Position numbers and translations under genes: made by a program. From the IMG/VR virus record IMGVR_UViG_2684622554_000001: 36,569 bases of DNA; one strand, 5' to 3'. Under the pieces are notes generated by a model. The model was not told the DNA's origin, ran no database searches, and saw nothing but the letters and a program-made list of their open reading frames with translations. The first letter of the stretch is position 1, and every line of letters begins with the position of its first letter. This document shows positions 8,795 through 34,934 of the stretch, piece after piece. The DNA comes from a virus. Its lineage: Duplodnaviria; Heunggongvirae; Uroviricota; Caudoviricetes.

Positions 8795-8801
8795 GAACTA
8801 G

Positions 8802-8822: not shown

Positions 8823-8866
8823 ATATATGGGTTATTAATTACCCGCTTATATAAATATTGAAGAAA

Positions 8867-11621: not shown

Positions 11622-11632
11622 TACGGGATCCA

Positions 11633-12382: not shown

Positions 12383-12471
12383 AGGTAATTTAAAAACGGT
12401 TCTGTGAAAGTGACACGAACCGATCTCCATCGATGTTACTCACCGATCTCCTTCACGGTAATACGCACTCA

Positions 12472-14244: not shown

Positions 14245-14417
14245 GAATACCTCGCCGTGATGAATACACGGCAAGGCTACTGAGTCGCGCCCCGCGATTC
14301 GCTAAGGTGCTGTTGTGTCAGTGATAAGCCATCCGGGACTGATGGCGGAGGATGCGCATCGTCGGGAAACTGATGCCGACATGTGACTCCTCTAATCACT
14401 ATTCAGGACTCCTGACA

Positions 14418-15272: not shown

Positions 15273-15330
15273 CCGGCGTCAGTCAGTCCGGGAAAACCTT
15301 CACGATTAACCCTTAATTTCAGGAAAAACT

Positions 15331-16404: not shown

Positions 16405-16407
16405 CCG

Positions 16408-17151: not shown

Positions 17152-17250
17152 CAACCGAATGCGCCCCGCGCCAGGGCGGCACGCCGGTCAGTGAGGGTGA
17201 ATCACCTGACACTGCACCAGCGTCCACCGCCCGACTTTTCAGAGGTAGTC

Positions 17251-17760
17251 ATGATGACGCTGATTATTCCGCGAAAGGAGGCTCCCGTGTCCGGTGAGGG
17301 TACGGTGGTCATCCCGCAACCGGCAGGCGACGAGCCGGTGATTAAAAACACGTTCTTTTTCCCCGATATCGACCCGAAGCGCGTCCGGGAACGTATGCGC
17401 CTTGAGCAGACCGTCGCCCCCGCTCGTCTGCGTGAGGCCATCAAGTCAGGCATGGCGGAGACGAATGCGGAGCTGTACGAGTACCGCGAACAGAAAATTG
17501 CCGCCGGTTTTACGCGTCTGGCGGACGTCCCGGCGGACGATATCGACGGTGAAAGCATCAAAGTTTTTTACTACGAGCGCGCCGTGTGTGCGATGGCGAC
17601 CGCGTCGCTTTATGAGCGTTATCGCGGCGTGGATGCCAGTGCGAAAGGCGACAAGAAGGCTGACAGCATTGACAGCACCATTGATGAACTGTGGCGGGAT
17701 ATGCGCTGGGCGGTGGCGCGTATCCAGGACAAGCCGCGCTGCATCGTGAGTCAAATCTGA
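17251..17760 (+). CDS. L: Head completion protein gpL
   Basis: 169 aa from the ATG at 17251 with an AGAGG SD, matching the P2 gpL length. Confidence 0.9.
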   Translation: MMTLIIPRKEAPVSGEGTVVIPQPAGDEPVIKNTFFFPDIDPKRVRERMRLEQTVAPARLREAIKSGMAETNAELYEYREQKIAAGFTRLADVPADDIDGESIKVFYYERAVCAMATASLYERYRGVDASAKGDKKADSIDSTIDELWRDMRWAVARIQDKPRCIVSQI

Positions 17761-17963
17761 TGAAGACCTTTGCGCTACAGGGCGACACGCTCGACGCCAT
17801 CTGTGTCCGGTATTACGGGCGCACTGAGGGCGTGGTTGAGACCGTGCTCGCCGCAAATCCGGGACTGGCTGAACAGGGTGCGGTGCTGCCACACGGCACC
17901 GCCGTCGAACTGCCCGACGTTCAGACCGCGCCCGTGGCTGAAACTGTCAATCTGTGGGAGTAA
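17760..17963 (+). CDS. X: Tail protein gpX
   Basis: 67 aa, MKTFALQGDTLDAICVRYYG. Start overlaps the L stop (TGATG). Confidence 0.85.
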   Translation: MKTFALQGDTLDAICVRYYGRTEGVVETVLAANPGLAEQGAVLPHGTAVELPDVQTAPVAETVNLWE

Positions 17964-17966
17964 CGC

Positions 17967-18248
17967 ATGACAGCAGAAGAAAAAAGCGTCCTGTCGCTTT
18001 TCATGATTGGGGTGCTGATTGTTGTCGGCAAGGTGCTTGCCGGTGGTGAACCCATCACCCCGCGTCTGTTTATCGGGCGCATGTTGCTCGGTGGTTTTGT
18101 CTCGATGGTTGCCGGTGTTGTTCTGGTGCAGTTTCCTGACCTGTCACTGCCTGCGGTGTGCGGTATCGGCTCCATGCTGGGTATCGCCGGTTATCAGGTG
18201 ATTGAGATTGCCATTCAGCGCCGCTTTAAGGGCAGGGGGAAACCGTAA
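17967..18248 (+). CDS. Y: Holin gpY
   Basis: 93 aa with hydrophobic transmembrane segments and a charged C-terminus. Position before the endolysin. Confidence 0.8.
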   Translation: MTAEEKSVLSLFMIGVLIVVGKVLAGGEPITPRLFIGRMLLGGFVSMVAGVVLVQFPDLSLPAVCGIGSMLGIAGYQVIEIAIQRRFKGRGKP

Positions 18249-18745
18249 TGCCGGTAATTAACACGCATCAGAATATCGCCGCCTTTCTCGACATGCTGGC
18301 CGTGTCCGAAGGGACGGCGAATCATCCGCTGACGAAAAACCGGGGCTATGACGTGATAGTCACCGGACTGGACGGGAAGCCGGAAATTTTCACTGACTAC
18401 AGTGACCACCCGTTCGCGCATGGCCGACCGGCGAAGGTGTTTAACCGTCGCGGTGAAAAATCCACGGCCTCCGGTCGCTATCAGCAGCTTTACCTGTTCT
18501 GGCCGCACTACCGCAAACAGCTTGCCCTGCCGGATTTCAGTCCGTTGTCACAGGACAGGCTCGCCATTCAGTTGATCCGCGAACGCGGTGCACTGGATGA
18601 CATCCGGGCGGGACGCATTGAGCGCGCCATTTCACGCTGTCGCAATATCTGGGCGTCCCTGCCGGGTGCCGGTTACGGTCAGCGTGAGCATTCACTGGAA
18701 AAACTGGTCACCGTCTGGCGTACCGCCGGCGGTGTACCAGCTTAA
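18248..18745 (+). CDS. K: Endolysin gpK (lysozyme)
   Basis: 165 aa, the same length as P2 gpK. Follows the holin. Confidence 0.85.
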   Translation: MPVINTHQNIAAFLDMLAVSEGTANHPLTKNRGYDVIVTGLDGKPEIFTDYSDHPFAHGRPAKVFNRRGEKSTASGRYQQLYLFWPHYRKQLALPDFSPLSQDRLAIQLIRERGALDDIRAGRIERAISRCRNIWASLPGAGYGQREHSLEKLVTVWRTAGGVPA

Positions 18746-18759
18746 ACGGAGTAAACACC

Positions 18760-19185
18760 ATGAAGAAATTATCCCTTTCACTGATGCTGAATGTGTCGCT
18801 GGCGCTGATGCTGGCACTGTCCCTGATTTACCCGCAGAGCGTGGCCGTCAATTTTGTCGCCGCCTGGGCGATTCTGGCGACGGTTATCTGTGTGGTTGCC
18901 GGTGGTGTCGGCGTGTATGCCACTGAGTATGTGCTGGAACGCTACGGGCGGGAGCTGCCACCGGAATCGCTGGCCGTGAAGATTGTCACGTCACTGTTTT
19001 TGCAGCCGGTGCCGTGGTGCAGACGGGCAGTGGCTCTGGTGGCGATGGTGGCGACATTTATCTCGCTGGTCGCCGCCGGATGGATTTTTACCGCGCTGAT
19101 TTATCTTGTGGCGTCGCTGTTTTTCCGGCTGATACGTAAAGCCTGTCGTCAGCGTCTTGAGGGGCGGGAATTATGTCAAAGCTGA
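18760..19185 (+). CDS. lysA: Lysis regulator LysA (membrane protein)
   Basis: 141 aa with multiple transmembrane helices. P2 lysA position and length. Confidence 0.7.
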   Translation: MKKLSLSLMLNVSLALMLALSLIYPQSVAVNFVAAWAILATVICVVAGGVGVYATEYVLERYGRELPPESLAVKIVTSLFLQPVPWCRRAVALVAMVATFISLVAAGWIFTALIYLVASLFFRLIRKACRQRLEGRELCQS

Positions 19186-19598
19186 TGATTGTGCTGGTCG
19201 TGTTGTTATCGCTGGCGGTGGCCGGTCTGTTTCTGGTGAAACACAAAAATGCCAGCCTGCGCGCCTCGCTGGACAGGGCGAATAACGTCGCCAGTGAACA
19301 GCAGACGACCATCACCATGCTGAAAAATCAGCTTCATGTTGCCATCACCAGGGCAGACAAAAACGAGCTGGCGCAGGTGGCACTGCGTCAGGAACTGGAG
19401 AACGCCGCGAAGCGTGAAGCACAGCGCGAGAAAACCATCACGAGGTTACTCAATGAAAACGAAGATTTTCGCCGCTGGTACGGCGATGATCTGCCTGATG
19501 CTGTGCGCCGGTTGCACCAGCGCCCCGCCTGCACCGACGCCAGTGATTGTCCACAACGCCTGCCCGAAAGTGAGCCTTTGCCCGATGCCGGGCAGTGA
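19173..19598 (+). CDS. lysB: LysB (Rz-like inner-membrane spanin)
   Basis: 141 aa. N-terminal transmembrane segment followed by a coiled-coil-like region. Confidence 0.7.
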   Translation: MSKLMIVLVVLLSLAVAGLFLVKHKNASLRASLDRANNVASEQQTTITMLKNQLHVAITRADKNELAQVALRQELENAAKREAQREKTITRLLNENEDFRRWYGDDLPDAVRRLHQRPACTDASDCPQRLPESEPLPDAGQ

Positions 19599-19743
19599 CC
19601 CGCAGACGAACGGCGATTTAAGTGCCGATATCCGGCAGCTTGAGAACGCGCTGGCGCGCTGTGCCAGCCAGGTAAAAATGATTAAACACTGTCAGGACGA
19701 AAACGATGCTCAAACCCGACAGCCTGCGCAGGGCGCTGACTGA
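19453..19743 (+). CDS. lysC: LysC (Rz1-like outer-membrane lipoprotein spanin), embedded in and overlapping lysB in another frame
   Basis: 96 aa from MKTKIF. Lipobox LCAGC. Proline-rich. GAGG SD. Confidence 0.7.
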   Translation: MKTKIFAAGTAMICLMLCAGCTSAPPAPTPVIVHNACPKVSLCPMPGSDPQTNGDLSADIRQLENALARCASQVKMIKHCQDENDAQTRQPAQGAD

Positions 19744-20172
19744 TGCCGTCACGGTGCTGAAAACCAGCCCCGAGATGCTGCGGATATTCGTGGATAACGG
19801 GAGTATTGCCTCCACACTGGCGACGTCGCTGTCATTCGAAAAGCGTTACACGCTCAATGTGATTGTGACCGACTTTACCGGTGATTTTGACCTGCTCATT
19901 GTGCCGGTGCTGGCGTGGCTGCGGAGAATCAGCCCGACATCATGACCACCGACGCAGGCCAGAAAAAGGGCTTCACGTTTTATGCAGACATCAACAATGA
20001 CAGCAGCTTTGATATCAGCATCAGCCTGATGCTGACCGAGCGCACGCTGGTCAGTGAGGTGGACGGCGCGCTGCATGTGAAGAATATCCCGGAACCCCCG
20101 CCGCCGGAGCCGGTCACCCGCCCGATGGAGCTTTATATCAATGGCGAACTGGTGAGCAAGTGGGATGAATGA
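19706..20172 (+). pseudogene. R: Tail completion protein gpR, interrupted by an apparent -1 frameshift near 19891..19945
   Basis: Two overlapping ORFs (19706..19945 and 19915..20172) in frames differing by one base. Total 467 nt, one short of the 468 nt needed for a 155-aa P2 gpR. Confidence 0.7.
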
Positions 20173-20617
20173 GTTTAAGCGTTTTGAAGACCGGCTGGCC
20201 GGACTTATTGAATCGCTGTCACCGTCAGGGCGTCGGCGACTGAGTGCCGAACTGGCGAAACGTCTGCGTCAGAGTCAGCAGCGTCGGGTGATGGCACAGA
20301 AAGCCCCGGACGGCACACCCTACGCGCCACGCCAGCAGCAGAGAGCCAGAAAAAAGACCGGTCGCGTTAAGCGAAAAATGTTTGCGAAACTTATCACCAG
20401 TCGTTTTTTGCATATCCGCGCCAGCCCGGAACAGGCATCAATGGAATTTTACGGCGGGAAGTCACCGAAAATCGCCAGCGTGCATCAGTTTGGTCTGTCG
20501 GAAGAAACCCGGAAAGACGGTAAGAAAATTGATTATCCGGCGCGTCCTTTGCTCGGCTTTACCGGTAAGGATGTGCAGATGATTGAAGAGATTATCCTGG
20601 CTCACCTCGATCGTTAG
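20165..20617 (+). CDS. S: Tail completion protein gpS
   Basis: 150 aa, the same length as P2 gpS. Confidence 0.85.
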   Translation: MNEFKRFEDRLAGLIESLSPSGRRRLSAELAKRLRQSQQRRVMAQKAPDGTPYAPRQQQRARKKTGRVKRKMFAKLITSRFLHIRASPEQASMEFYGGKSPKIASVHQFGLSEETRKDGKKIDYPARPLLGFTGKDVQMIEEIILAHLDR

Positions 20618-20767
20618 TTGTGCAATTTTTTTACGCTTTATTGCTGAGTTGTTGATTGTTGTATAACACTCTTTGTATTTTCGTCGGATAAGTTTTAATT
20701 GCCACTTGAAAATATACAGTCGATTGGGGCATAAGGATTCATCAATGGTGATCGTTTGAATGTTTAA

Positions 20768-20798
20768 GGCCGCGATAAAATGTCGCGGCCAGTTTTTT
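20768..20798. terminator. Rho-independent terminator between S and cargo B
   Basis: GGCCGCGA-TAAAATG-TCGCGGCC 8-bp stem followed by TTTTTT. Confidence 0.6.
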
Positions 20799-20821
20799 CC
20801 GTTTGCGAACTGACCAGGTTG

Positions 20822-21565
20822 TTATCTGGTTAAATAAGTGAGCTCACTCTCTTTAGGTATTAGCTGAGTGTCTCCTCCCCATTCGTTCATGATGTTTTTT
20901 CTCGCATTCCAGTATTCTTGGTAAGTATCTTGATGAACAGTGTAGATACTTGCTAAAAGCCAGTGTTGATACTTAAGAGTCGTGTATTGGTATTCTTCTA
21001 TTATCGGTAAAATGAATAAGTTTTTTTGCTTTAGTGAGATTAAATATTCTTTTGTTTGTTTGGTGGTTCTGTCATTGTTTAAGATTCTTTCAATCTTAAA
21101 TGAAAAGCCGTGCATGTTTATATTTCTTTGGAGGTGCATGAATGATGATATTGATGGGGCGATCATGTTTTGATGCGTCAGGATGTTTCTTAAATCCTCC
21201 ATTAATTTTATTACTGGATTATTTCGGAATTCATGATTGATGAATGCCTCTGATTTGATTTTAATGTCGGCAATATTTAATGCTTTTGTTTTAAGTAGGT
21301 TGCGCGTTGAATCTCTAAATGATAATGCTGAAGATATATAATTGAAAAGGTGTCTTGATATGTTTAAATGTTCTTTTTTAAATTTGTCTCTGTTAAATGA
21401 ATGACGGGAAACAATGTCAGGGGAGTTGAATTTGCTTAATTCATGTTGGACAACTTCGTAATTGGCAATATGCATATGTCCAAGTAAATTGGTGTCGGAG
21501 ATTTTTAAATACTCTTGGTGGGCGATGGTGTCTTTTTGATTTTCCCAGATTTGATATTTATCCAT
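20822..21565 (-). CDS. Cargo B: AT-rich hypothetical protein with two Rx4H motifs (possible HEPN-type or abortive-infection-like)
   Basis: 247 aa on the strand opposite the tail operon. Strongly AT-rich. Own SD (AAGGA). R126-x4-H131 and R147-x4-H152. Confidence 0.8.
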   Translation of the reverse strand: MDKYQIWENQKDTIAHQEYLKISDTNLLGHMHIANYEVVQHELSKFNSPDIVSRHSFNRDKFKKEHLNISRHLFNYISSALSFRDSTRNLLKTKALNIADIKIKSEAFINHEFRNNPVIKLMEDLRNILTHQNMIAPSISSFMHLQRNINMHGFSFKIERILNNDRTTKQTKEYLISLKQKNLFILPIIEEYQYTTLKYQHWLLASIYTVHQDTYQEYWNARKNIMNEWGGDTQLIPKESELTYLTR

Positions 21566-21648
21566 ACTTCAGTTCCTTCTTGATTGTGCCAAAAATGATA
21601 CAACGGATTGTAATGGTTTATCGAGTATATATCTCTCATTATTGCCGT

Positions 21649-22284
21649 ATGAACACATTATCAAATATTCAGGAACTCGCGCGCGCACTGCGCAACATGA
21701 TACGCACCGGCATTGTCGTCGAAACCGACCTTAACGCCGGTCGCTGCCGTGTGCAGACCGGCGGCATGTGCACCGACTGGCTTCAGTGGCTGACCCATCG
21801 CGCCGGGCGTTCGCGCACATGGTGGGCACCTTCCGTGGGGGAACAGGTGCTGATTCTGGCCGTGGGCGGTGAACTCGACACGGCGTTCGTTCTGCCGGGG
21901 ATTTATTCCGGCGATAACCCCGCGCCGTCTGCGTCGGCGGATGCCCTGCATATCCGTTTCCCTGACGGGGCGGTGATTGAATATGAACCCGAAACCAGTG
22001 CACTTACGGTAAGCGGAATTAAAACGGCCAGCGTGACGGCCTCTGATTCTGTTACTGCCACGGTGCCGGTGGTCATGGTGAAAGCATCAACCCGCGTCAC
22101 CCTGGACACACCGGAGGTGGTCTGCACCAACAGGCTGATTACCGGCACGCTGGAAGTGCAGAAGGGCGGGACGATGCGCGGTAACATTGAACACACCGGC
22201 GGTGAACTTTCATCAAACGGTAAAGTACTGCATACCCATAAACACCCCGGCGACAGCGGCGGCAAAACCGGGAGTCCTCTATGA
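21649..22284 (+). CDS. V: Baseplate spike gpV
   Basis: 211 aa from MNTLSNIQELARALRNM, matching the P2 gpV length. The track start at 21580 is a TTG. Confidence 0.9.
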   Translation: MNTLSNIQELARALRNMIRTGIVVETDLNAGRCRVQTGGMCTDWLQWLTHRAGRSRTWWAPSVGEQVLILAVGGELDTAFVLPGIYSGDNPAPSASADALHIRFPDGAVIEYEPETSALTVSGIKTASVTASDSVTATVPVVMVKASTRVTLDTPEVVCTNRLITGTLEVQKGGTMRGNIEHTGGELSSNGKVLHTHKHPGDSGGKTGSPL

Positions 22285-22628
22285 CAGCGCGTTATCTCGG
22301 AATGAATCGCAGTGATGGTCTGACTGTCACTGACCTTGAGCATATCAGCCAGAGTATCGGCGATATCCTGCGCACACCGGTCGGCTCACGGGTGATGCGT
22401 CGTGATTACGGCTCGTTGCTGGCGTCAATGATTGACCAGCCGCAGACCCCGGCGCTTGAGTTGCAGATTAAGGTCGCCTGTTACATGGCCGTGCTGAAAT
22501 GGGAACCCCGCGTCACCCTGTCATCCGTCACCACGGCGCGCAGTTTTGACGGGCGAATGACGGTCACGTTAACCGGTCAGCACAACGACACCGGCCAACC
22601 ACTTTCGTTAACCATCCCTGTGAGTTGA
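22281..22628 (+). CDS. W: Baseplate wedge gpW
   Basis: 115 aa, the same length as P2 gpW. Overlaps the V stop. Confidence 0.9.
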   Translation: MTARYLGMNRSDGLTVTDLEHISQSIGDILRTPVGSRVMRRDYGSLLASMIDQPQTPALELQIKVACYMAVLKWEPRVTLSSVTTARSFDGRMTVTLTGQHNDTGQPLSLTIPVS

Positions 22629-22632
22629 AACC

Positions 22633-23540
22633 ATGCCGATTATCGACCTGAACCAGCTACCCGCACCGGATGTGGTCGAGGAGTTGGACTTTGAAACCAT
22701 TCTCGCTGAACGCAAGGCGACACTGATTTCCCTTTACCCGGAAGACCAGCAGGAGGCGGTCGCCCGTACCCTGACGCTGGAATCTGAGCCTCTCGTCAAA
22801 CTGCTGGAGGAAAATGCTTATCGTGAGCTTATCTGGCGTCAGCGTGTGAATGAGGCTGCGCGGGCGGTGATGCTGGCCTGTGCCGCCGGTAATGACCTTG
22901 ATGTGATTGGTGCCAATTACAACACCACGCGCCTGACTATCACCCCGGCAGATGATTCGACCATCCCGCCGACACCGGCAGTGATGGAGTCTGACACCGA
23001 TTATCGTCTGCGTATTCAGCAGGCGTTTGAGGCTTAAGCGTCGCCGGGTCGGTGGGAGCCTATCAGTATCATGGTCGCAGTGCCGACGGGCGTGTCGCGG
23101 ATATCTCTGTCACCAGTCCGTCTCCGGCCTGCGTCACTATCTCCGTGCTGTCTCGCGAAAATAACGGTGTTGCATCCGAAGACCTGCTGGCGGTGGTGCG
23201 CAACGCCCTGAATGGTGAGGACGTCAGGCCGGTGGCCGACCGCGTGACCGTGCAGTCTGCCGCCATCGTTGAATACCAGATAAACGCCACGCTTTACCTT
23301 TACCCTGGTCCCGAAAGCGAACCCATCCGCGCTGCTGCCGTGAAAAAACTGGAAGCGTACATCACGGCACAGCACCGGCTGGGGCGCGACATCCGTCTGT
23401 CTGCTATTTATGCCGCTTTGCATGTGGAAGGCGTGCAGCGTGTCGAGCTGGCTGCACCACTGGCCGACATTGTGCTCAACAGTACGCAGGCGTCTTTCTG
23501 CACCGAATACCGCGTCGTGACCGGGGGCTCGGATGAGTGA
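22633..23540 (+). pseudogene. J: Baseplate protein gpJ with an apparent 1-bp deletion (G run at 23031..23032)
   Basis: Split into 22633..23037 and 23052..23540. Combined 908 nt, one short of 909 nt for the 302-aa P2 gpJ. Frames join at ...IQQAFE / LSVAGSVGAYQ. Confidence 0.8.
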
Positions 23541-24063
23541 TTCGCGACTGCTGCCGACCGGCTCATCACCGCTTGAAGTTGCCGCCGCAAAAGCCTGTGC
23601 GGAAATTGAAAAAACGCCGGTCAGTATTCGTGAACTGTGGAACCCGGACACCTGTCCGGCAAATCTGCTGCCGTGGCTGGCGTGGGCGTTTTCGGTCGAC
23701 AGGTGGGATGAAAAGTGGCCGGAAGCGACAAAACGCGCCGTTATCCGCGATGCCTATTTCATCCACTGTCATAAGGGCACGATAGGTGCAATCCGGCGTG
23801 TGGTGGAGCCGCTGGGCTATCTCATCAACGTGACGGAGTGGTGGGAAACCAGTGACCCGCCGGGCACCTTCCGGCTTGATATTGGTGTACTGGAAAGTGG
23901 CATCACAGAGGCAATGTATCAGGAAATGGAACGGCTGATTGCTGATGCCAAACCTGCAAGCCGTCACCTTATTGGCCTGAACATTACCCGGGACATTCCC
24001 GGCTACCTGTTCGCCGGTGGTGTGGCTTACGACGGCGATGTAATTACGGTTTACCCCGGATAA
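23533..24063 (+). CDS. I: Baseplate protein gpI
   Basis: 176 aa, the same length as P2 gpI. Confidence 0.9.
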   Translation: MSDSRLLPTGSSPLEVAAAKACAEIEKTPVSIRELWNPDTCPANLLPWLAWAFSVDRWDEKWPEATKRAVIRDAYFIHCHKGTIGAIRRVVEPLGYLINVTEWWETSDPPGTFRLDIGVLESGITEAMYQEMERLIADAKPASRHLIGLNITRDIPGYLFAGGVAYDGDVITVYPG

Positions 24064-24073
24064 GTGAGGAATA

Positions 24074-25615
24074 ATGAGCACAAAATTCAGAACCGTTATC
24101 ACCACTGCCGGTGCAGCAAAGCTGGCAGCGGCAACCGCGCCGGGAGGGCGGAAGGTCAACATTACCACGATGGCCGTCGGGGATGGCGGTGGTAAATTGC
24201 CTGTCCCGGATGCCGGACAGACCGGGCTTATCCATGAAGTCTGGCGACATGCGCTGAACAAAATCAGCCAGGACAAACGAAACAGTAATTATATTATCGC
24301 AGAGCTGGTTATTCCGCCGGAGGTGGGCGGTTTCTGGATGCGTGAGCTTGGCCTGTACGATGATGCGGGAACATTAATTGCCGTGGCGAACATGGCCGAA
24401 AGTTATAAGCCAGCTCTTGCCGAAGGCTCAGGGCGTTCGCAGACCTGTCGCATGGTCATCATCGTCAGCAGTGTGGCCTCAGTGGCGCTGACCATTGACA
24501 CCACAACGGTGATGGCGACGCAGGATTACGTTGATGACAAAATTGCAGAGCATGAACAGTCACGACGTCACCCGGACGCCTCGCTGACCGCAAAAGGTTT
24601 TACTCAGTTAAGCAGTGCGATCAACAGCACGTCTGAAACACTGGCCGCAACGCCGAAAGCGGTAAAGGCCGCGTATGATCTTGCTAACGGGAAATACACT
24701 GCGCAGGATGCCACCACAGCGCGAAAAGGCCTTGTCCAGCTCAGTAGCGCCACCAACAGCACGTCTGAAACGCTCGCCGCTACACCAAAAGCGGTAAAGG
24801 CAGCATATGACCTTGCTAACGGGAAATACACTGCACAGGACGCCACCACAGCGCGAAAAGGTCTTGTCCAGCTCAGTAGCGCCACCAACAGCGATTCTGA
24901 AACGCTTGCAGCAACGCCAAAGGCGGTTAAGACAGCGTATGACCTTGCTAACGGGAAATACACTGCGCAGGATGCCACCACGGCGCGAAAAGGCCTTGTC
25001 CAGCTCAGTAGCGCCACCAACAGTGATTCTGAAACGCTGGCCGCAACACCAAAAGCAGTGAAGTCTGCCTATGACAATGCTGAAAAACGTCTTCAGAAAG
25101 ATCAGAACGGTGCGGATATTCCGGGAAAGGATACCTTCACGAAAAATATCGGTGCCTGTCGTGCTTATAGCGGCGCTTTGAGCACTGAAGCCGGAAACTG
25201 GACAACCGCTCAGTTTATTGAATGGCTGGATTCCCGTGGTGCATTTAATCATCCGTACTGGATGTGCAAATGTTCATGGTCATACGGCAATAATAAAATT
25301 ATTACCGATACTGGCTGTGGAACTATTCATCTTGCAGGTTGCGTTATTGAGGTTATGGGTAATAAAGGTGCCATGACCATCCGTGTAACAACACCAAGCA
25401 CTTCCACCGGAGGCGGCACCACTAACGCTCAATTCACTTATATTAATCATGGTGATGCTTATGCTCCTGGCTGGCGACGAGACTACAACACGAAAAACCA
25501 GCAGCCTGCATTTGCTTTAGGGAAAACAGGAAGCACTGTCGGAAATGATAAAGCTGTTGGCTGGAACTGGAATAGCGGGTCTATCAAGCAAATATTGGTG
25601 GCGCATCGACATTAA
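24074..25615 (+). CDS. H: Tail fiber protein gpH (N-terminal and repeat region); likely continues into 25630..26001 through a frameshift
   Basis: N-terminal about 180 aa resemble the P2 gpH N-terminus (MSxKFRTVITTAGAAKLAAATAPG...). GAGGA SD. Ends abruptly at ...LVAHRH. Confidence 0.85.
   Translation: MSTKFRTVITTAGAAKLAAATAPGGRKVNITTMAVGDGGGKLPVPDAGQTGLIHEVWRHALNKISQDKRNSNYIIAELVIPPEVGGFWMRELGLYDDAGTLIAVANMAESYKPALAEGSGRSQTCRMVIIVSSVASVALTIDTTTVMATQDYVDDKIAEHEQSRRHPDASLTAKGFTQLSSAINSTSETLAATPKAVKAAYDLANGKYTAQDATTARKGLVQLSSATNSTSETLAATPKAVKAAYDLANGKYTAQDATTARKGLVQLSSATNSDSETLAATPKAVKTAYDLANGKYTAQDATTARKGLVQLSSATNSDSETLAATPKAVKSAYDNAEKRLQKDQNGADIPGKDTFTKNIGACRAYSGALSTEAGNWTTAQFIEWLDSRGAFNHPYWMCKCSWSYGNNKIITDTGCGTIHLAGCVIEVMGNKGAMTIRVTTPSTSTGGGTTNAQFTYINHGDAYAPGWRRDYNTKNQQPAFALGKTGSTVGNDKAVGWNWNSGSIKQILVAHRH
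24608..25075 (+). repeat. In-frame tandem repeat inside H: 132-bp (44-aa) unit, about 3.5 copies
   Basis: LSSA[TI]NS[TD]SETLAATPKAVK[AT]AYDLANGKYTAQDATTARKGLVQ repeated. Causes long spurious antisense ORFs in the track. Confidence 0.9.
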
Positions 25616-25629
25616 TCCTCCATTTCAAT

Positions 25630-26001
25630 ATGAGCGAGGGGAGTTGCCCTGCCGTACAGTTCCGTGTGAATTATAAGAACGGCGGTATTTATTATCGTTC
25701 AGCGCGTGATGGTTATGGATTTGAGGCTGACTGGTCAGAGTTTTACACCACAACCCGCAAACCCTCTGCGGGAGATGTTGGTGCATATACCAAAGATGAA
25801 TCGGATTCTCGCTATGTACGAGATATTCGCCTGGGCACACGTGTTGTTCAGACTATGAAAAAAGGTGTGATGTATGAGAAAGCAGGGCACGTAATTACCG
25901 GGCTTGGTATTGTCGGTGAAGTCGATGGTGATGACCCCGCAGTATTCAGACCAATACAAAAATACATCAATGGAACATGGTATAACGTCGCACAGGTGTA
26001 A
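25630..26001 (+). pseudogene. Tail fiber C-terminal (receptor-binding) segment, probably the 3' part of H separated by a 1-bp deletion
   Basis: No SD before the ATG at 25630. Its frame is open upstream to 25576, overlapping the H 3' end, and the frame offset is the same -1 seen in R, J, FII and T. Confidence 0.45.
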
Positions 26002-26004
26002 TTT

Positions 26005-26532
26005 ATGCAGCATTTAAAAAATATTATTGCGGGTAATCCAAAAACTGTTGCCCAATATCAACTGACAAAAAATTTTGATGTTATCTGGTTATGGTCCGAA
26101 GAGGGAAAAAACTGGTATGAGGAAGTAAATAATTTTCAGGAGGACACGATAAAGATTGTTTACGACGAGAATAATATAATTGTCGGCATCACCAGAGATG
26201 CTTCAACGCTTAACCCTGAAGGTTTTAGCGTTGTCGAGGTTCCTGATATTACCGCCAACCGACGTGCTGATGACTCAGGTAAATGGATGTTTAAGGATGG
26301 TGCCGTGATTAAGCGGATTTATACGGCAGACGAACAGCAACAACAGGCCGAATCACAAAAGGCCGCGTTACTTTCCGAAGCGGAAAGCGTTATCCAGCCG
26401 CTGGAACGCGCCGTCAGGCTGAATATGGCGACGGATGAGGAGCGCGCACGACTGGAGTCATGGGAACGCTACAGCGTTCTGGTCAGCCGTGTGGATCCTG
26501 CAAATCCTGAATGGCCGGAAATACCGCAATAA
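26005..26532 (+). CDS. G: Tail fiber assembly chaperone gpG
   Basis: 175 aa, the same length as P2 gpG. Immediately after the tail fiber. Confidence 0.85.
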
Positions 26533-26821
26533 GTTGTATGATATCTGGAGTGAGCTAACGTATCTATGGCACAGAGTAAAACTTAATCTGACAGTCTGCT
26601 CTGTACCAAAAGCGGAACTTGCTTACATCGTGCTATGTTAGTTTACTGGGAGCAGGTCATTATCTACGTGATTGCTATTTTATAACTTGGATAAAATGGG
26701 GATGAACATAATATCGAGACAGTGATTGCAGAGTTAGTCATTATAGGCGGGCATCAGTTCATGCCGGATCTCTAATGCAATTATCAGGAAAATATGGGAC
26801 GTTTTATCAATCAGAGGAAAT

Positions 26822-28048
26822 ATGTTACAGTTCAGCTTTGTATCAAATGACGTTGTTATGACTTACGACGGTGACAGCGGAGAACAAATAATTTGGGTTT
26901 GGGAGAGTTTAAATAAATTTCAAACAGTATGCATTTCACGAATTTTTAACTTTCAACTCCAGGATTTGAGAAACCCACCGTCAACCGTTCAGGATTTTAA
27001 TGATTACGAATATTCCTTTAATTTTGGCACGCTTAATAATGAATACATAACAGTTCCGGGACGGATTCTAAGCATTAATCGAGATGTCCTTATACATAAG
27101 TCCATCAAGCTTGAAAGGAAAGTATTTGCGTCAGAACGCAACGTCTCCATTTTTGGTCGGCTTTCAAAACTACTCGAACACACTAATCCCATCATCATCG
27201 GAGGAGATAAGCCGGAAGCTATACCAAAAAGCGTATTCCAGGAGTTGCAAAGTAAATTCCCCAACACAGGGGAACTGGATCGCTATGCTAATGCAAGGGT
27301 TCACGCTATTCTCGCAGGTTATCTTGATGGTATGAAAGATGCTCGCGAACGGTATGAACATTACCTAAACAGAAAAACAGTGATCAGAAAAACCGACAAA
27401 CTGGATTTAGAAGTTTTAAATAAGCTCGAAATTGAGAAATATACACTCATAAGAGACATTATCCAGGATGCGTTGAATAACAAAACTAACTTGTCTGAAG
27501 ATGACTGGCAGAGCCTGATGATACCCTTCATCACATTACTTTTTCCAAAATATATCAAGGTCCTCGAGAAGGTTAAAATTTTCGACTATTACTCTAATCC
27601 TTCGGCTAAAACAAATCGGTTTATAGACATTGCACTGGTGGATGCAAACGGCAACCTTGATATCATCGAAGTCAAAAAGCCGTTTGATGATAAGATCCTT
27701 CGCAAGACGCCCTATCGCGATAACTATATTCCTACATCAGAACTTAGCGGCGGTATTATGCAGGCTGAAAAGTATATTTTTCATTTATCTAAATGGGGTG
27801 TTAAGGGTGAAAAAGAGCTTACGAATGCCTACAAGAATTCTCTGCCAGCGGGAATGTGTATTCGTATATCTAACCCAAAAGCCATCATCATTGTCGGGCG
27901 CGATCAGATAGCGAACGGTAACATGACCGACGGTCAGTTGCTTGATTTTGAGATAATCAAACGTAAGTACGCCAACATGATAGACATATTGACGTACGAC
28001 GACCTGTTGCGTCGACTTAATAATACGATTGAAGCATTGAAAGGTTGA
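26822..28048 (+). CDS. Cargo C (Z/fun slot): protein with C-terminal PD-(D/E)xK nuclease signature, possibly Shedu/DUF4263-like
   Basis: 408 aa, AT-rich. RFID269IALVD...DIIE283VK285 with Q314 downstream. Own SD (GAGGAAAT). Located between G and FI. Confidence 0.85.
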   Translation: MLQFSFVSNDVVMTYDGDSGEQIIWVWESLNKFQTVCISRIFNFQLQDLRNPPSTVQDFNDYEYSFNFGTLNNEYITVPGRILSINRDVLIHKSIKLERKVFASERNVSIFGRLSKLLEHTNPIIIGGDKPEAIPKSVFQELQSKFPNTGELDRYANARVHAILAGYLDGMKDARERYEHYLNRKTVIRKTDKLDLEVLNKLEIEKYTLIRDIIQDALNNKTNLSEDDWQSLMIPFITLLFPKYIKVLEKVKIFDYYSNPSAKTNRFIDIALVDANGNLDIIEVKKPFDDKILRKTPYRDNYIPTSELSGGIMQAEKYIFHLSKWGVKGEKELTNAYKNSLPAGMCIRISNPKAIIIVGRDQIANGNMTDGQLLDFEIIKRKYANMIDILTYDDLLRRLNNTIEALKG

Positions 28049-28333
28049 ATGCCCATGAGGTTCACACCCACAACGGGGAGCAGGTCACTTCCTCTTGTTT
28101 GATTGACATACCATAACGTCTGCTTTTGGCTCAAAGCAGACTGTCTGATTTGATAGCTTTTGGGCTATGTAAATTGTCAGTTGAAAAATGAGTGAGTACA
28201 AATCAGGACGGGCGGCGAGTTGCCCGCCTTTTCTTTAATCTGTTGTTTCATCCACTGACCAGTCAGGTCAAATAGCGTCTTATGCACTGCCCAACAGAAA
28301 ATAGTTGCACCCATTAACCACGGAGTTAAACGG

Positions 28334-29524
28334 ATGAGTGACTATCATCACGGCGTGCAGGTGCTGGAGATTAACGACGGCACCCGCGTCATTTCCACCG
28401 TATCCACCGCCATTGTTGGCATGGTCTGCACGGCCAGCGATGCGGATGCGGAAATCTTCCCCCTCAATAAACCGGTGCTGATTACCAATGTGCAGAGCGC
28501 AATTGCAAAGGCCGGTAAAAAAGGCACGCTGGCGGCGTCGTTACAGGCCATCGCTGACCAGTCAAAACCGGTCACCGTTGTCGTACGTGTGGAAGACGGC
28601 ACCGGCGACGACGAGGAAACGAAACTCGCGCAGACCGTTTCCAATATCATCGGCACTACCGACGAAAACGGTCAGTACACCGGACTGAAAGCCCTGCTGG
28701 CGGCGGAGTCGGTAACCGGTGTTAAACCGCGTATTCTCGGTGTGCCGGGGCTGGATACCAAAGAGGTGGCTGTTGCACTGGCATCAGTCTGTCAGAAGCT
28801 GCGCGCTTTCGGGTATATCAGCGCATGGGGCTGTAAAACCATTTCCGAGGTGAAAGCTTACCGCCAGAATTTCAGCCAGCGTGAGCTGATGGTCATCTGG
28901 CCGGATTTCCTCGCATGGGATACGGTCGCCAGTACCACCGCCACCGCGTATGCCACCGCCCGTGCGCTGGGTCTGCGCGCTAAAATCGACCAGGAGCAGG
29001 GCTGGCATAAAACGCTGTCCAACGTCGGGGTGAACGGTGTTACCGGCATCAGCGCATCTGTATTCTGGGATTTGCAGGAGTCCGGTACTGATGCTGACCT
29101 GCTTAACGAGTCAGGTGTCACTACGCTGATTCGCCGCGACGGTTTCCGCTTCTGGGGTAACCGTACCTGCTCTGATGACCCGCTGTTCCTCTTTGAAAAC
29201 TACACCCGCACCGCGCAGGTGTTGGCCGACACGATGGCTGAGGCGCACATGTGGGCGGTGGATAAGCCCATCACCGCAACGCTGATTCGCGACATCGTTG
29301 ACGGCATCAATGCCAAATTCCGTGAGCTGAAAACAAACGGCTATATCGTGGATGCGACCTGCTGGTTCAGCGAAGAATCCAACGATGCGGAAACCCTCAA
29401 GGCCGGAAAACTGTATATCGACTACGACTATACACCGGTGCCTCCTCTCGAAAACCTGACCCTGCGCCAGCGTATTACCGATAAATACCTGGCAAATCTG
29501 GTCACCTCGGTTAACAGCAATTAA
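28334..29524 (+). CDS. FI: Tail sheath protein gpFI
   Basis: 396 aa, the same length as P2 gpFI. GGAG SD. Confidence 0.95.
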   Translation: MSDYHHGVQVLEINDGTRVISTVSTAIVGMVCTASDADAEIFPLNKPVLITNVQSAIAKAGKKGTLAASLQAIADQSKPVTVVVRVEDGTGDDEETKLAQTVSNIIGTTDENGQYTGLKALLAAESVTGVKPRILGVPGLDTKEVAVALASVCQKLRAFGYISAWGCKTISEVKAYRQNFSQRELMVIWPDFLAWDTVASTTATAYATARALGLRAKIDQEQGWHKTLSNVGVNGVTGISASVFWDLQESGTDADLLNESGVTTLIRRDGFRFWGNRTCSDDPLFLFENYTRTAQVLADTMAEAHMWAVDKPITATLIRDIVDGINAKFRELKTNGYIVDATCWFSEESNDAETLKAGKLYIDYDYTPVPPLENLTLRQRITDKYLANLVTSVNSN

Positions 29525-29536
29525 GGAGCCTGACCG

Positions 29537-30054
29537 ATGGCAATGCCGCGCAAACTCAAGTTAATGAACGTCTTTCTGAACGGCTACAGCTATCAGGGCG
29601 TCGCAAAGTCCGTCACGCTGCCAAAACTGACCCGTAAGCTCGAAAACTATCGCGGTGCGGGGATGAACGGCAGCGCACCGGTAGACCTCGGCCTTGATGA
29701 CGATGCGCTGTCAATGGAGTGGTCGCTCGGGGCTTCCCGGATTCGGTTATCTGGGAGCTTTACGCCGCAACCGGTGTGGATGCCGTGCCGATTCGTTTTG
29801 CTGGCTCTTACCAGCGCGACGATACCGGCGAAACGGTGGCCGTCGAAGTGGTCATGCGTGGACGTCAGAAAGAAATCGACACCGGAGAGGGTAAACAGGG
29901 AGAAGACACCGAGTCGAAAATCTCCGTGGTCTGCACCTATTTCCGGCTGACGATGGACGGTAAGGAGCTGGTCGAAATCGACACCATCAACATGATTGAG
30001 AAGGTGAACGGCGTCGACCGGCTGGAGCAACACCGCCGTAATATCGGCCTGTGA
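29537..30054 (+). pseudogene. FII: Tail tube protein gpFII with an apparent 1-bp deletion (G run 29729..29732)
   Basis: Split into 29537..29950 and 29719..30054. Combined 518 nt versus 519 nt for the 172-aa P2 gpFII. Junction SLG|GFPDSVIW requires GGGGG where GGGG is present. Confidence 0.85.
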
Positions 30055-30110
30055 TTTTCATACGGTCAGCCAGGCTGACCGGTTAACCCTGATTCAGAAG
30101 TGAGAAAACC

Positions 30111-30386
30111 ATGGACAAAGAAAATGTCATTACCCTGGAAAATCCGGTCAAACGTGGTGAGCAGGTTATCGAACAGGTCACGCTGATGAAACCTAATGCC
30201 GGGACGCTGCGCGGTGTCAGTCTGGCTGCGGTCGCAAACTCCGAAGTCGATGCACTGATTAAAGTGCTGCCGCGCATGACGGCACCGATGCTGACCGAGC
30301 AGGAAGTCGCCGCGCTGGAACTGCCTGACCTTGTGGCGCTGGCCGGTAAGGTGGTCGGTTTTTTGTCGCCGAACTCGGTGCAGTAA
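30111..30386 (+). CDS. E: Tail assembly chaperone gpE
   Basis: 91 aa, the same length as P2 gpE. Ends just after the T6G slippery run. Confidence 0.9.
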   Translation: MDKENVITLENPVKRGEQVIEQVTLMKPNAGTLRGVSLAAVANSEVDALIKVLPRMTAPMLTEQEVAALELPDLVALAGKVVGFLSPNSVQ

Positions 30387-30538
30387 CGTTTCCTAAAAAT
30401 CTGTCGGTCGATGACCTGATGGCGGATGTGGCAGTGATATTTCACTGGCCGCCATCAGAACTGTATCCCATGAGTCTGACCGAACTCATCACATGGCGCG
30501 AAAAGGCGCTCCGGCGAAGCGGAAACACGAATGAGTAA
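30111..30538 (+). CDS. E': gpE+E' produced by programmed -1 translational frameshift at TTTTTTG (30359..30365)
   Basis: The -1 frame from the slippery site is open to TAA at 30536..30538 and encodes ...ITWREKALRRSGNTNE. Would give 142 aa, matching the known P2 E+E' arrangement. Confidence 0.75.
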
Positions 30539-32977
30539 CAATGTAAAATTACAGGTATTGCTCAGGGCTGTTGACCAGGCATCCCGCCCGTTTAAATCCA
30601 TCCGCACAGCGAGCAAATCGCTGTCGGGGATATCCGGGAAACACAAAAATCACTGCGCGAGCTGAACGGTCAGGCATCCCGTATTGAGGGATTTCGCAAG
30701 ACCAGTGCACAGCTCGCCGTGACTGGTCAGGAACTGAAAAAAGCCAGACAGGAAGCCGCAGCTCTGGCTGTCCAGTTTAAAAATACTGAACGACCGACAA
30801 ATGCACAGGCAAAGGCAATGGAAGCCGCGCGTAAAAATGCGTCTGAGTTACAGGCGAAATATAACAGCCTGAGATTGTCGGTACAGCGCCAGCGTCAGGA
30901 ATTGAGTCAGGCGGGTATTAATACCCGCAATCTGGCGCATGATGAACGAGGGCTGAAAAACCGTATCAGTGAAACCACCGCACAGCTTAACCGTCAGCGC
31001 GACGCGCTGGCGCGTGTCAGTGCGCAACAGGCAAAACTTAATGCAGTAAAACAGCGTTATCAGGCCGGAAAGGAACTGGCTGGAAATATGGCCTCGGTAG
31101 GCGCTGCCGGTGTGGGGATTGCGGCGGCGGGAACGATGGCCGGAGTTAAGCTGCTGATGCCCGGTTATGAGTTTGCGCAGAAAAACTCAGAATTGCAGGC
31201 CGTGCTGGGTGTGGCAAAAGACTCCGCCGAAATGACCGCACTCCGCAAGCAGGCGCGCCAGCTCGGCGACAATACCGCAGCCTCGGCGGATGATGCAGCC
31301 GGTGCACAGATTATCATTGCGAAAGCCGGCGGGGATGCTGCGGCTATTCAGGCGGCAACGCCGGTAACGCTGAATATGGCACTGGCGAATCAGCGGTCGA
31401 TGGAAGAAAACGCGCAACTGTTGCTGGGGACTAAGGCATCCTTTCAACTGTCAAATGATGATGTCAGCCATGTGGGCGACGTGTTGTCGGCAACGATGAA
31501 TAAGTCGGCGGCTGATTTTCAGGGACTCAGTGATGCACTGACTTACCTCGGTCCGGTTGCGAGGACGGCAGGTGTAAGTCTTGAACATGCTGCAGCCATG
31601 ACAGGTGTGCTGCATGACAATAACATCAGGGGGTCAATGGCGGGTACGGGTAGTAGTGCCGTTGTCACCCGATTACAGGCTCCGACAGGGAAAGCATGGG
31701 AAGCACTAAAAGAGCTTGGCGTTAAAACCTCGGACAAAAAGGGAAATATGCGTCCGTTGTTCACCATTCTGAAAGAGATTCAGGTCAGCTTTGATAAACA
31801 CAAGCTGGGAACGTCTCAGAAGGGGGAATACCTTAAAACCATTTTTGGTGAGGAAGCCCTGAAATCAGCGAACGTTTTACTGGCAGCGGCAGCAAGCGGA
31901 AAACTGGATAAGCTGACCGCCACGCTGAAAGCATCGGACGGTAAAACGGAAGAGCTGGTTAAAATCATGCAGGATAACCTCGGTGGTGACTTTAAGGAGT
32001 TTCAGTCCGCTTATGAGGCGGTGGGGACTGACCTGTTTGACCAGCAGGAAGGCACACTGCGTAAGCTCACTCAGACGGCCACAAAGTATGTGTTAAAACT
32101 CGACGGCTGGATCCAGAAAAACAAATCACTGGCGTCAACCATCGGCCTCATTGCCGGTGGCGCGCTGGCGCTTATTGGCATCATCGGTGCAATTGGTCTT
32201 GTAGCCTGGCCGGTTATCACCGGCATCAATGCCATCATCGCGGCAGCAGGCGCAATGGGTGCAATCTTCACGACGGTTGGTAGTGCCGTTATGACGGCCA
32301 TCGGGGCGATTAGCTGGCCGGTTGTGGCCGTGGTGGCTGCAATTGTCGCCGGGGCGTTGCTTATCCGTAAATACTGGGAGCCTGTCAGCGCATTCTTTGG
32401 CGGTGTGGTGGAAGGGCTGAAAGCGGCATTTGCGCCGGTGGGAGAACTGTTCACGCCACTGAAGCCGGTGTTTGACTGGCTGGGCGAAAAGTTACAGGCC
32501 GCGTGGCAGTGGTTTAAAAACCTGATTGCCCCGGTTAAAGCCACCCAGGACACCCTGAACCGTTGCCGTGACACGGGCGTCATGTTCGGGCAGGCACTGG
32601 CTGACGCACTGATGCTGCCGCTTAATGCGTTCAACAAACTGCGCAGTGGTATTGACTGGGTGCTGGAAAAACTCGGTGTTATCAACAAAGAGTCAGACAC
32701 ACTTGACCAGACCGCCGCAAGGACTAATGCCGCCACGTATGGCACCGGTGGTTATATTCCGGCGACCAGCTCTTATGCAGGCTATCAGGCTTACCAGCCG
32801 GTCACAGCACCGGCTGGCCGCTCTTATGTGGACCAGAGTAAAAACGAATATCACATCAACCTGACGGGCGGTACTGCGCAGGGGACACAGCTCGACCGCC
32901 AGTTACAGGATGCGCTCGAAAAATACGAGCGGGATAAACGTGCGCGCGCCCGTGCCAGCATGATGCATGACGGTTAA
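30531..32977 (+). pseudogene. T: Tape measure protein gpT with an apparent 1-bp deletion (G run 30626..30629)
   Basis: ATG at 30531 encodes MSNNVKLQVLLRAVDQASRPFKSIRTASKSLSG, then a stop. The main ORF continues in the adjacent frame (30719..32977). Total 2447 nt versus 2448 nt for the 815-aa P2 gpT. Confidence 0.9.
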
Positions 32978-32991
32978 GGAGGTGACTAAAA

Positions 32992-33471
32992 ATGATGCTC
33001 GCGTTAGGTATGTTTGTTTTTATGCGCCAGACGCTGCCACACCAGACCATGCAGCGTGAATCAGATTATCGCTGGCCGTCAAATTCCCGTATCGGTAAAC
33101 GGGATGCCTACCAGTTTCTCGGTGTTGGCGAGGAAAACATGACGCTTGCCGGTGTGCTTTATCCCGAACTGACCGGCGGAAAGCTGACGATGACCACGCT
33201 CAGGCTGATGGCAGATGAAGGCCGGGCGTGGCCGTTGCTGGATGGCACCGGCATGATTTACGGCATGTATGTCATCAGCAGGGTGAGTGAAACAGGGAGT
33301 ATTTTCTTTGCAGACGGCACACCCCGGAAAATTGATTTTACGCTGTCGCTCACCCGCGTTGATGAATCACTGGCCGCGCTTTATGGCGATATCGGTAAAC
33401 AGGCGGAATCGCTCATCGGTAAGGCTGGCAGTATAGCGACTAAATTCACGGATATGACGGAGGCGGGATAA
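32992..33471 (+). CDS. U: Tail protein gpU
   Basis: 159 aa, the same length as P2 gpU. AAGGAGG SD. Confidence 0.9.
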   Translation: MMLALGMFVFMRQTLPHQTMQRESDYRWPSNSRIGKRDAYQFLGVGEENMTLAGVLYPELTGGKLTMTTLRLMADEGRAWPLLDGTGMIYGMYVISRVSETGSIFFADGTPRKIDFTLSLTRVDESLAALYGDIGKQAESLIGKAGSIATKFTDMTEAG

Positions 33472-34634
33472 TGCTGGATGCGCTGACATTTGATGCAGGC
33501 AGTACGCTGACGCCGGATTACATGCTGATGCTCGACAGCAGGGATATTACCGGCAATATCAGCGACCGTCTGATGAGCATGACCCTGACGGATAACCGGG
33601 GCTTTGAGGCTGACCAGCTTGATATTGAACTGAACGATGCCGACGGGCAGGTCGGGCTGCCGGTTCGTGGCGCAGTCCTGACGGTGTATATCGGCTGGAA
33701 AGGTTTTGCCCTGGTATGCAAAGGGAAATTCACCGTTGATGAGGTTGAACACCGGGGCGCGCCGGATGTGGTCACCATCCGCGCCCGGAGTGCAGATTTC
33801 CGCGGGACGCTCAATTCCCGCCGGGAAGGCTCCTGGCATGACACCACGCTCGGTGCGATTGTTGAGGCGATAGCCTCCCGTAACAAGCTGGAAGCCAGTG
33901 TCGCTCCGTCACTGGCCGGAATTAAAATCCCGCACATCGACCAGTCGCAGGAGTCTGATGCAAAATTCCTGACCCGCCTTGCTGAACGCAACGGCGGTGA
34001 GGTGTCGGTAAAAATGGGAAAACTGTTGTTTCTCAAAGTGGGGCAGGGGGTGACGGCAAGCGGTAAAAAAATCCCGCAGATTACCATCACCCGCAGCGAC
34101 GGCGACCGTCATCATTTTGCGATTGCTGACCGTGGAGCCTATACCGGCGTAACGGCAAAGTGGTTACACACCAAAGACCCGAAGCCGCAAAAGCAGAAGG
34201 TAAAACTGAAACGCAAAAAGAAAGAGAAACACCTGCGCGCACTGGAGCACCCGAAAGCGAAACCGGTCAGGCAGAAGAAAGCGCCTAAAGTACCGGAAGC
34301 GCGCGAAGGTGAATACATGGCCGGTGAGGCTGACAACGTTTTTGCCCTGACCACGGTATATGCCACAAAAGCGCAGGCCATGCGCGCCACTCAGGCGAAG
34401 TGGGATAAACTGCAACGGGGCGTTGCGGAGTTCTCCATCAGCCTGGCTACCGGTCGGGCAGATATTTACACGGAAACACCGGTCAGAGTGTCAGGCTTTA
34501 AGCGCGTCATAGACGAGCAGGACTGGACAATCACTAAGGTGACACATTTTCTGAATAATAGCGGCTTCACGACGTCCTTGGAGCTTGAGGTCAGGCTTTC
34601 TGATGTGGAGTACGAAACAGAAGATGATGAGTGA
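33471..34634 (+). CDS. D: Tail protein gpD
   Basis: 387 aa, the same length as P2 gpD. Overlaps the U stop. Confidence 0.9.
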   Translation: MLDALTFDAGSTLTPDYMLMLDSRDITGNISDRLMSMTLTDNRGFEADQLDIELNDADGQVGLPVRGAVLTVYIGWKGFALVCKGKFTVDEVEHRGAPDVVTIRARSADFRGTLNSRREGSWHDTTLGAIVEAIASRNKLEASVAPSLAGIKIPHIDQSQESDAKFLTRLAERNGGEVSVKMGKLLFLKVGQGVTASGKKIPQITITRSDGDRHHFAIADRGAYTGVTAKWLHTKDPKPQKQKVKLKRKKKEKHLRALEHPKAKPVRQKKAPKVPEAREGEYMAGEADNVFALTTVYATKAQAMRATQAKWDKLQRGVAEFSISLATGRADIYTETPVRVSGFKRVIDEQDWTITKVTHFLNNSGFTTSLELEVRLSDVEYETEDDE

Positions 34635-34715
34635 TGTTTTTATTTTATCTGTTTGTTTTATAAGGATAAATTAACTAAAATGGCACCATCAACAAAACCG
34701 GAAGAGGTGCTCGCG

Positions 34716-34934
34716 ATGTTTCATTGTCCTTTATGCCAGCATGCCGCACATGCGCGTACAAGTCGCTATATCACTGACACGACAAAAGAGCGTTATCACC
34801 AGTGCCAGAACGTGAATTGCAGCGCCACGTTCATCACTTATGAGTCGGTACAGAGATACATCGTGAAGCCGGGAGAAGTCCACGCCGTGAGGCCGCACCC
34901 GTTGCCGTCAGGGCAGCAAATTATGTGGATGTAA
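34716..34934 (+). CDS. ogr: Late-gene transcription activator Ogr (zinc-finger)
   Basis: 72 aa from MFHCPLCQHAAHARTSRY. CxxC...CxxxxC cysteines. GAAGAGG SD. Last phage gene before attR. Confidence 0.9.
   Translation: MFHCPLCQHAAHARTSRYITDTTKERYHQCQNVNCSATFITYESVQRYIVKPGEVHAVRPHPLPSGQQIMWM

Follow-up and report, generated by a model that had tools for sequence, protein, structure and literature searches.

Deletions in PacBio sequence are mostly of single G or C bases (PMC8574707), and in one study three rounds of Quiver left 561 single-base homopolymer deletions uncorrected in a 3-Mb genome (PMC4888979).

The prophage considered here has the same gene order as phage P2 (NC_001895) from int to ogr. 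The core proteins of the two are mostly 94–100% identical, although T stands at about 88% and the C-terminal half of H is divergent, and both carry cargo at shared hot spots (old/tin, orf30, and fun(Z)). In contrast to P2, the prophage has an AAA_31 ATPase, a 247-aa unknown protein, and a Shedu-like nuclease as cargo, another C-terminus in H, ISEc12 between Q and P, and a location at the yegR-yegQ site. The window, meaning the whole 36,569-nucleotide stretch that was analyzed, had been noted in a preliminary description for five tail genes (R, J, H, FII, and T) that each lack one base, and this was read either as homopolymer under-calling in a long-read assembly or as the decay of a tail-less, domesticated prophage. 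We find that the missing bases are real features of the record and that the broken tail genes are almost certainly an ordinary artefact; the observation stands, but the genes are probably intact.

Results

Alignment with P2 proteins (tblastn) recovered a collinear gene set comprising int, C, cox, B, A, Q, P, O, N, M, L, X, the lysis genes, R, S, V, W, J, I, H, G, FI, FII, E, T, U, D, and ogr. Apart from the affected tail genes, every P2 homologue aligns at full length or nearly so (Q over 339 of 344 aa and A over 755 of 761 aa), and megablast gave 93–95% identity to P2-like phages over 71–75% of the query. The prophage shows one genuine structural lesion and no other, the insertion of ISEc12, flanked by the 5-bp target duplication CTCAT. 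Head genes had been described as full length, which is true of the individual ORFs but not of an intact operon, as the 2.58-kb element separates the portal and terminase genes and splits P-Q. In this position the element may by itself reduce expression of the portal gene.

The window matches CP013837.1, the chromosome of the ST131-H22 Escherichia coli strain JJ1897 (loci L004 and L012), at 100% identity and corresponds to about positions 2,461,973–2,498,541 there, and the annotation of JJ1897 has no gene call for R, J, H, FII, or T. For CP013837 the source paper lists PacBio RSII P6-C4 sequencing, HGAP3, and Quiver polishing and nothing else, and a count of the word "Illumina" in its main text gave 0. 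On this method list and this count, the assembly rests on PacBio CLR reads and received no short-read correction. The paper also states that every isolate of its collection has a draft assembly. JJ1897 was not found in the RefSeq complete-genome set, which does include SaT040 and CD306, two sister assemblies produced by that study.

The missing bases were placed by aligning the window at the nucleotide level with P2 and with near-identical prophages (Table 1). Seven private 1-bp deletions of G were found in this way, five of them in coding sequence and two intergenic. With P2 proteins as tblastn queries, the reading frame changes by −1 in R (2 to 1), J (1 to 3), FII (2 to 1), and T (3 to 2), and H is spread over frames 2 and 1; R looks frameshifted on account of the G missing at 19923..19924. 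Both methods thus bear out the earlier statement that the five tail genes each lack one base, and the positions or brackets proposed for them all contain the true sites (19923, 23031, 25577, 29729, and 30626). The count of five is correct for the tail genes, but the total is seven once the sites at 26698 (G5 to G4) and 28214 (G3 to G2) are included. Likewise, H lacks one nucleotide relative to the 1929-nt allele found in its siblings and not, as had been proposed, relative to P2 H, which has 2010 nt. Restoring one G per site gave ORFs of 155 (R), 302 (J), 642 (H), 172 (FII), and 815 (T) aa with no internal stops, and their products are identical to those of the sister prophage in CP091506.1.

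Table 1. Positions of the prophage, its insertion sequence, and the seven sites with a missing G
Feature	Position	Strand	Observation
P2-like (Peduovirus) prophage, int to ogr	753..34934		integrated between yegR and yegQ
ISEc12 (IS21 family; istA 10080-11621, istB 11633-12382)	9887..12467	+	2.58 kb, at P/Q stop/start overlap
R (tail completion; ORF 19706-20172)	19923..19924	+	GG vs GGG in 33/33 aligned relatives
J (baseplate; ORF 22633-23540)	23031..23032	+	GG vs GGG in relatives
H (tail fibre; ORF 24074-26001)	25577..25579	+	GGG vs GGGG in siblings
Intergenic, G (tail fibre assembly) / Shedu-like gene	26698..26701	+	GGGG vs GGGGG in siblings
Intergenic, upstream of FI	28214..28215	+	GG vs GGG in siblings
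FII (tail tube; ORF 29537-30054)	29729..29732	+	GGGG vs GGGGG in siblings; P2 GGTGG
T (tape measure; ORF 30531-32977)	30626..30629	+	GGGG vs GGGGG in relatives

When the window was compared with CP091506.1, GCA_043238165.1, GCA_021657315.1, and a Logan contig (ERR8667263), every indel proved to be a 1-bp loss of G from a G run, and no substitutions separated the window from the near-identical prophages between 16729 and 33201 (16.4 kb). Over 6.68 kb shared with a further locus (L019), the gaps in J and H are the sole differences. The extra base is present in all aligned relatives at every site, with 8–33 relatives per site. Among IMG/VR matches to the five coding sites, 297 of 299 are intact (R 10/10, J 97/98, H 3/3, FII 119/120, and T 68/68). 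The sole J exception is L047, a contig in which about 50 single bases are deleted, and the FII exception (L164) is an unrelated contig in which the G5 run is also shortened. Exact-product look-ups for the truncated J and FII found no record. The relatives, IMG/VR, and the product look-ups therefore agree that the deletions belong to this assembly alone. RefSeq complete E. coli genomes held no close copy of the tail region (best matches 96%), and a look-up with capsid protein N, whose allele occurs in 3808 blocks, returned only unrelated P2-like prophages and no clonal short-read assembly of JJ1897.

The window spans 36.6 kb and has an overall error density of about 0.2 per kb; all seven deletions lie in a 10.7-kb part of it (simulated P about 0.003). 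In the prophage interval, shortened runs amount to 3/5 for G5, 1/17 for G4, and 3/73 for G3, as against 0 of ~340 A/T runs. Each lost base is a G and none a C on the + strand, a pattern that is only weakly unusual because G runs are commoner than C runs in the interval. A meaning in this strand bias was considered and dropped, given that imbalance and the plasmid described below, where G and C runs are hit in proportion to their abundance.

As a control from the same assembly, the tra genes of plasmid pJJ1897_1 (CP013836.1, bases 4001–29000) were compared with the independent plasmids pU60 and pS7-S3K40-1. Over these 25 kb we found 21 single-base gaps and 0–1 substitutions; each gap is a JJ1897 deletion in a G/C run of 4–6, and the error density reaches 0.84 per kb. 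Shortening affected 5/7 C6 runs, 6/22 C5 runs, and 5/60 C4 runs. No A/T run and no 3-base run was shortened in bases 4001–29000, whereas at three of the seven prophage sites the true run length is only 3. The pJJ1897_1 table has no protein entries for traI, traD, traG, traN, and traC. Taken with the intergenic prophage sites, the plasmid shows that the error signature recurs elsewhere in the assembly whatever the gene function.

Discussion

We consider the seven missing Gs to be consensus errors of the assembly and not mutations, with a probability of roughly 0.96; the case is very strong but falls short of proof. The signature consists of single-base homopolymer deletions that are biased to G/C, depend on run length, and come with no excess of substitutions. 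The PacBio RSII chemistry and the Quiver caller would together lose one base systematically from G/C homopolymers, and a base dropped inside a coding region would make the ORF look frameshifted. That five of the seven dropped bases lie in tail genes follows from these genes occupying most of the stretch, and the intergenic sites at 26698 and 28214 show that the effect is not specific to them. The under-calling suggested earlier fits the sequencing method, the privacy of the sites, the lack of substitutions, the intergenic sites, and the plasmid signature. We infer that the JJ1897 reads (PRJNA307507), or the true JJ1897 DNA, would carry the extra G, and R, J, H, FII, and T are most probably intact in the real chromosome and identical to those of the sister prophages.

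The other reading offered at the outset was genuine pseudogenisation, whereby a prophage crippled, for example, by ISEc12 lost five tail genes to real frameshifts and became a tail-less, domesticated element keeping its immunity and defense cargo. The P-Q operon is truly split, and with a real IS insertion in the prophage some genuine decay is conceivable; the frameshifted genes are also essential and their cluster is local. However, under neutral decay substitutions are far more numerous than indels, and a count of seven indels and 0 substitutions in 16.4 kb inverts that ratio. Neither inherited lesions nor accompanying substitutions, as pseudogenes would have, were found: all seven changes are of one event type, two are intergenic, and none is shared with any relative. 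Strain 98201 has ISEc12 at the identical site and yet its late genes are all intact. Moreover, traI, traD, traG, traN, and traC on the plasmid "decay" alike with 0–1 substitutions. The decaying, tail-less prophage is thus left unsupported, and we regard it as very unlikely.

A real, localized shower of −1 frameshifts ranks slightly lower still and is highly improbable. Here, an error-prone polymerase copying about 10 kb of one strand, as DNA polymerase IV (DinB) might in the repair of a double-strand break, would have introduced seven strand-coordinated −1 G deletions that disabled the tail of an otherwise intact prophage at once. Pol IV prefers −1 frameshifts in G:C runs, and both the clustering in 10.7 kb and the placement of all seven sites in G runs of the same strand would be in keeping with its action. 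Nevertheless, the strand bias is weak given the run composition, and the identical signature appears in another replicon of the assembly, where it is denser and affects both strands; it therefore points to the sequencing method and not to a local repair event.

Programmed frameshifting or phase variation, with the G runs as slippery or contingency sites toggling the tail genes, finds a precedent in the one true programmed −1 frameshift of P2 (E/E') and a possible parallel in the short FII run of L164, but it is the least probable reading and is effectively refuted by intact ORFs in all relatives, in which R, J, H, FII, and T are uninterrupted single ORFs and no conserved two-frame arrangement with a slippery site was found, while runs of 2–4 G are too short for contingency loci and two sites are non-coding.

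With consensus error as the preferred explanation, the result is mainly a caution. CP013837.1 and its plasmid CP013836.1 hold dense false frameshifts, and pseudogene, "defective prophage", and "non-conjugative plasmid" calls from the JJ1897 record can therefore not be relied on. Read literally, this record would falsely imply that an ST131-H22 strain has a domesticated P2 prophage lacking its tail.

Comparison with known systems

The window resembles uncorrected PacBio RSII (HGAP/Quiver) assemblies in having deletions only, in G/C runs and dependent on run length, with no substitutions, and in the many false frameshifts and pseudogenes that result. It differs from them in that three of the seven prophage runs have a true length of only 3 and in that the errors cluster in 10.7 kb. 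A second likeness is to P2-like prophages that are defective or domesticated and to tailocin-like remnants, as the record at face value would resemble a prophage with immunity, lysis, head, and defense genes but no tail. Genuine remnants, however, have deletions, mixed lesion types, and substitutions shared within lineages, whereas this prophage has lesions of one kind that are confined to a single assembly and recur in the plasmid of that assembly.

Single-base losses in the tail region

The preliminary description correctly noted and located frameshifts in five tail genes: R, J, FII, and T each shift frame by -1 part-way through the protein, H is divided between two frames, and alignment to P2 shows R, J, FII, and T to lack one base apiece. 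When the window was compared with near-identical sister prophages (CP091506.1, GCA_043238165.1, GCA_021657315.1, Logan contigs ERR8667263 and ERR13369730, and metagenome contigs), in which all five genes are intact, exactly seven indels were found, every one the loss of a single G from a plus-strand G run. All five reported deletions stand, and the count becomes seven with two previously unreported intergenic sites, both private to the window, which show that the effect is not gene-specific. Adding one G at each of the five coding sites yields uninterrupted ORFs with products identical to those of CP091506.1, from which the window has no substitution between 16729 and 33201.

Among the 38 fetched loci, every aligning sequence carries the extra base, and no private window indel lies outside 19.9-30.6 kb; one locus (L019) equals the window over 6.68 kb with the J and H gaps as the sole differences. 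We also scanned IMG/VR with patterns matching both the long and the short allele at each site. At J, the one short-allele match is L047, a draft contig that carries about fifty single-base deletions and is plainly erroneous itself. At FII, it is L164 (IMGVR_UViG_2531839178_000021, 748-771), which is a different P2-like phage (94% identity) with the same G5 to G4 change; either the run is a hot spot for recurrent errors or mutations, or that draft has a similar artefact.

Features of the window, with intact product length in sister prophages, fetched loci carrying the extra base, and intact alleles in IMG/VR
Feature	Position	Strand	Change or content	Length (aa)	Loci	IMG/VR
R	19923	+	G3 to G2	155	33	10/10
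J	23031	+	G3 to G2	302	26	97/98
H	25577	+	G4 to G3	642	8	3/3
Intergenic, downstream of G	26698 (run 26698-26701)	+	G5 to G4
Intergenic, upstream of FI	28214 (run 28214-28215)	+	G3 to G2
FII	29729	+	G5 to G4	172	14	119/120
T	30626	+	G5 to G4	815	10	68/68
ISEc12	9887-12467		IS21 family, istA/istB; CTCAT 5-bp target duplication; termini TGCGTA...TACGCA
old/tin cargo ATPase	7658-8794		region 6600-8870
O-N-M patch	14939-16729		29 substitutions vs CP091506.1
orf30 cargo	20822-21565	-	247-aa protein
H repeat	24590-25090		direct repeat, ~132 bp
fun(Z) cargo nuclease	26822-28048		Pfam SduA_C
yegQ host flank	35003-36468		~29 substitutions/1.5 kb vs CP091506.1

Origin of the deletions

Exact-product look-ups of two intact proteins, S and the sheath protein FI, retrieved the sister prophages and also CP013837.1 (assembly GCA_001513655.1), which matches the window at 100% over 18.2 kb and 20.5 kb and lacks gene calls for R, J, H, FII, and T; exact look-ups of the truncated forms of J and FII found them in no assembly on record. 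According to the paper that deposited it, CP013837 is the JJ1897 chromosome (E. coli ST131-H22), sequenced by PacBio RSII (P6-C4), assembled with HGAP3, and polished by Quiver only; the word Illumina is absent from that paper's main text.

The plasmid of the same assembly, pJJ1897_1 (CP013836.1), served as a control. We compared bases 4001-29000 (25 kb) of its tra region with two independent plasmids, pU60 (Israel) and pS7-S3K40-1 (Sweden), and found 0-1 substitutions. There are also 21 gaps, each of them a base lost from JJ1897 in a G or C run whose true length is 4-6, with 16 in C and 5 in G, proportionate to abundance. The share of runs affected rises with length (5/60 for C4, 6/22 for C5, and 5/7 for C6), while no run of three and none of approximately 670 A/T runs is affected. 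It is because of these false deletions that traI, traD, traG, traN, traC, and others lack protein entries. That biology would frameshift all large tra genes of a conjugative plasmid without a substitution is not credible; the pattern is a property of the JJ1897 assembly, and CP013836.1 at face value wrongly suggests a transfer-defective plasmid.

The prophage pattern is the same, restricted to G/C and dependent on length: 3/5 G5, 1/17 G4, and 3/73 G3 runs are shortened, and 0 of approximately 340 A/T runs. The seven-site G loss is not a real biological feature. Long-read homopolymer under-calling, which the preliminary description had proposed, is supported by private G-run losses, the lack of substitutions, the plasmid control, and the PacBio/Quiver-only method. 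In one study, three rounds of Quiver left 561 homopolymer single-base deletions in a 3-Mb genome (PMC4888979); another reports PacBio deletions to be mostly single G/C bases, with truncation of even essential genes despite 361x coverage (PMC8574707). The RefSeq complete-genome collection includes SaT040 and CD306, two sister assemblies from the JJ1897 paper, but not JJ1897; this absence and the published deletions agree with an assembly artefact.

The seven sites cluster within 10.7 kb of a window 36.6 kb long (P ~0.003, uniform model), and three of them have a true run length of 3, the class unaffected in the plasmid. A real, localised mutation shower is a very improbable source of the seven deletions. 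We would guess that read coverage dips locally, or is skewed in orientation, over about one read length. The plus-strand base is G at every one of the seven sites, a bias only weakly unusual because G runs exceed C runs in that stretch (95 vs 76; 5 vs 2 for runs of five).

Neutral decay is expected to leave substitutions far above indels, mixed lesion types, and lesions common to relatives. None of these is seen in the window, and real decay behind the tail-gene lesions, with the tail-less domesticated prophage suggested earlier, is not supported. The ISEc12 between P and Q is a genuine insertion: it lands exactly on the P stop/Q start overlap, leaving both ORFs intact, cuts Q off from the P promoter, and replaces the Q Shine-Dalgarno with IS sequence. 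RefSeq strain 98201 carries the same ISEc12 at this site too, identically oriented, with all late genes annotated intact, and therefore the insertion is no mark of a decaying lineage. ISEc12 is also listed within the matching stretch of the other best RefSeq matches, including ATCC 11775 and APEC O1. This recurrence points to either a phage lineage in which the IS is inherited or a site strongly prone to insertion.

Prophage structure and cargo

The O-N-M substitutions are confined to that patch, which looks like a tract of recombination (mosaicism) with another P2-like phage in a prophage otherwise identical to CP091506.1. The yegQ flank diverges although the prophage beside it is nearly identical; the same prophage is thus present in host backgrounds that differ, as would fit a functional phage that has recently spread horizontally.

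The prophage is flanked by yegR and yegQ, and all P2 core proteins are present and collinear with P2, the majority with 94-100% identity. Cargo occupies the P2 hot spots: between G and FI, at fun(Z), a 408-aa Shedu-like nuclease (in RefSeq, 'Shedu immune nuclease family protein'); at old/tin, a 378-aa AAA_31/CbiA-like ATPase with small unannotated ORFs; and at orf30, a protein without a Pfam match. P2 H residues 168-251 match twice in the window H, with staggered, self-similar blastn alignments; the repeat is a fibre-shaft expansion relative to P2.
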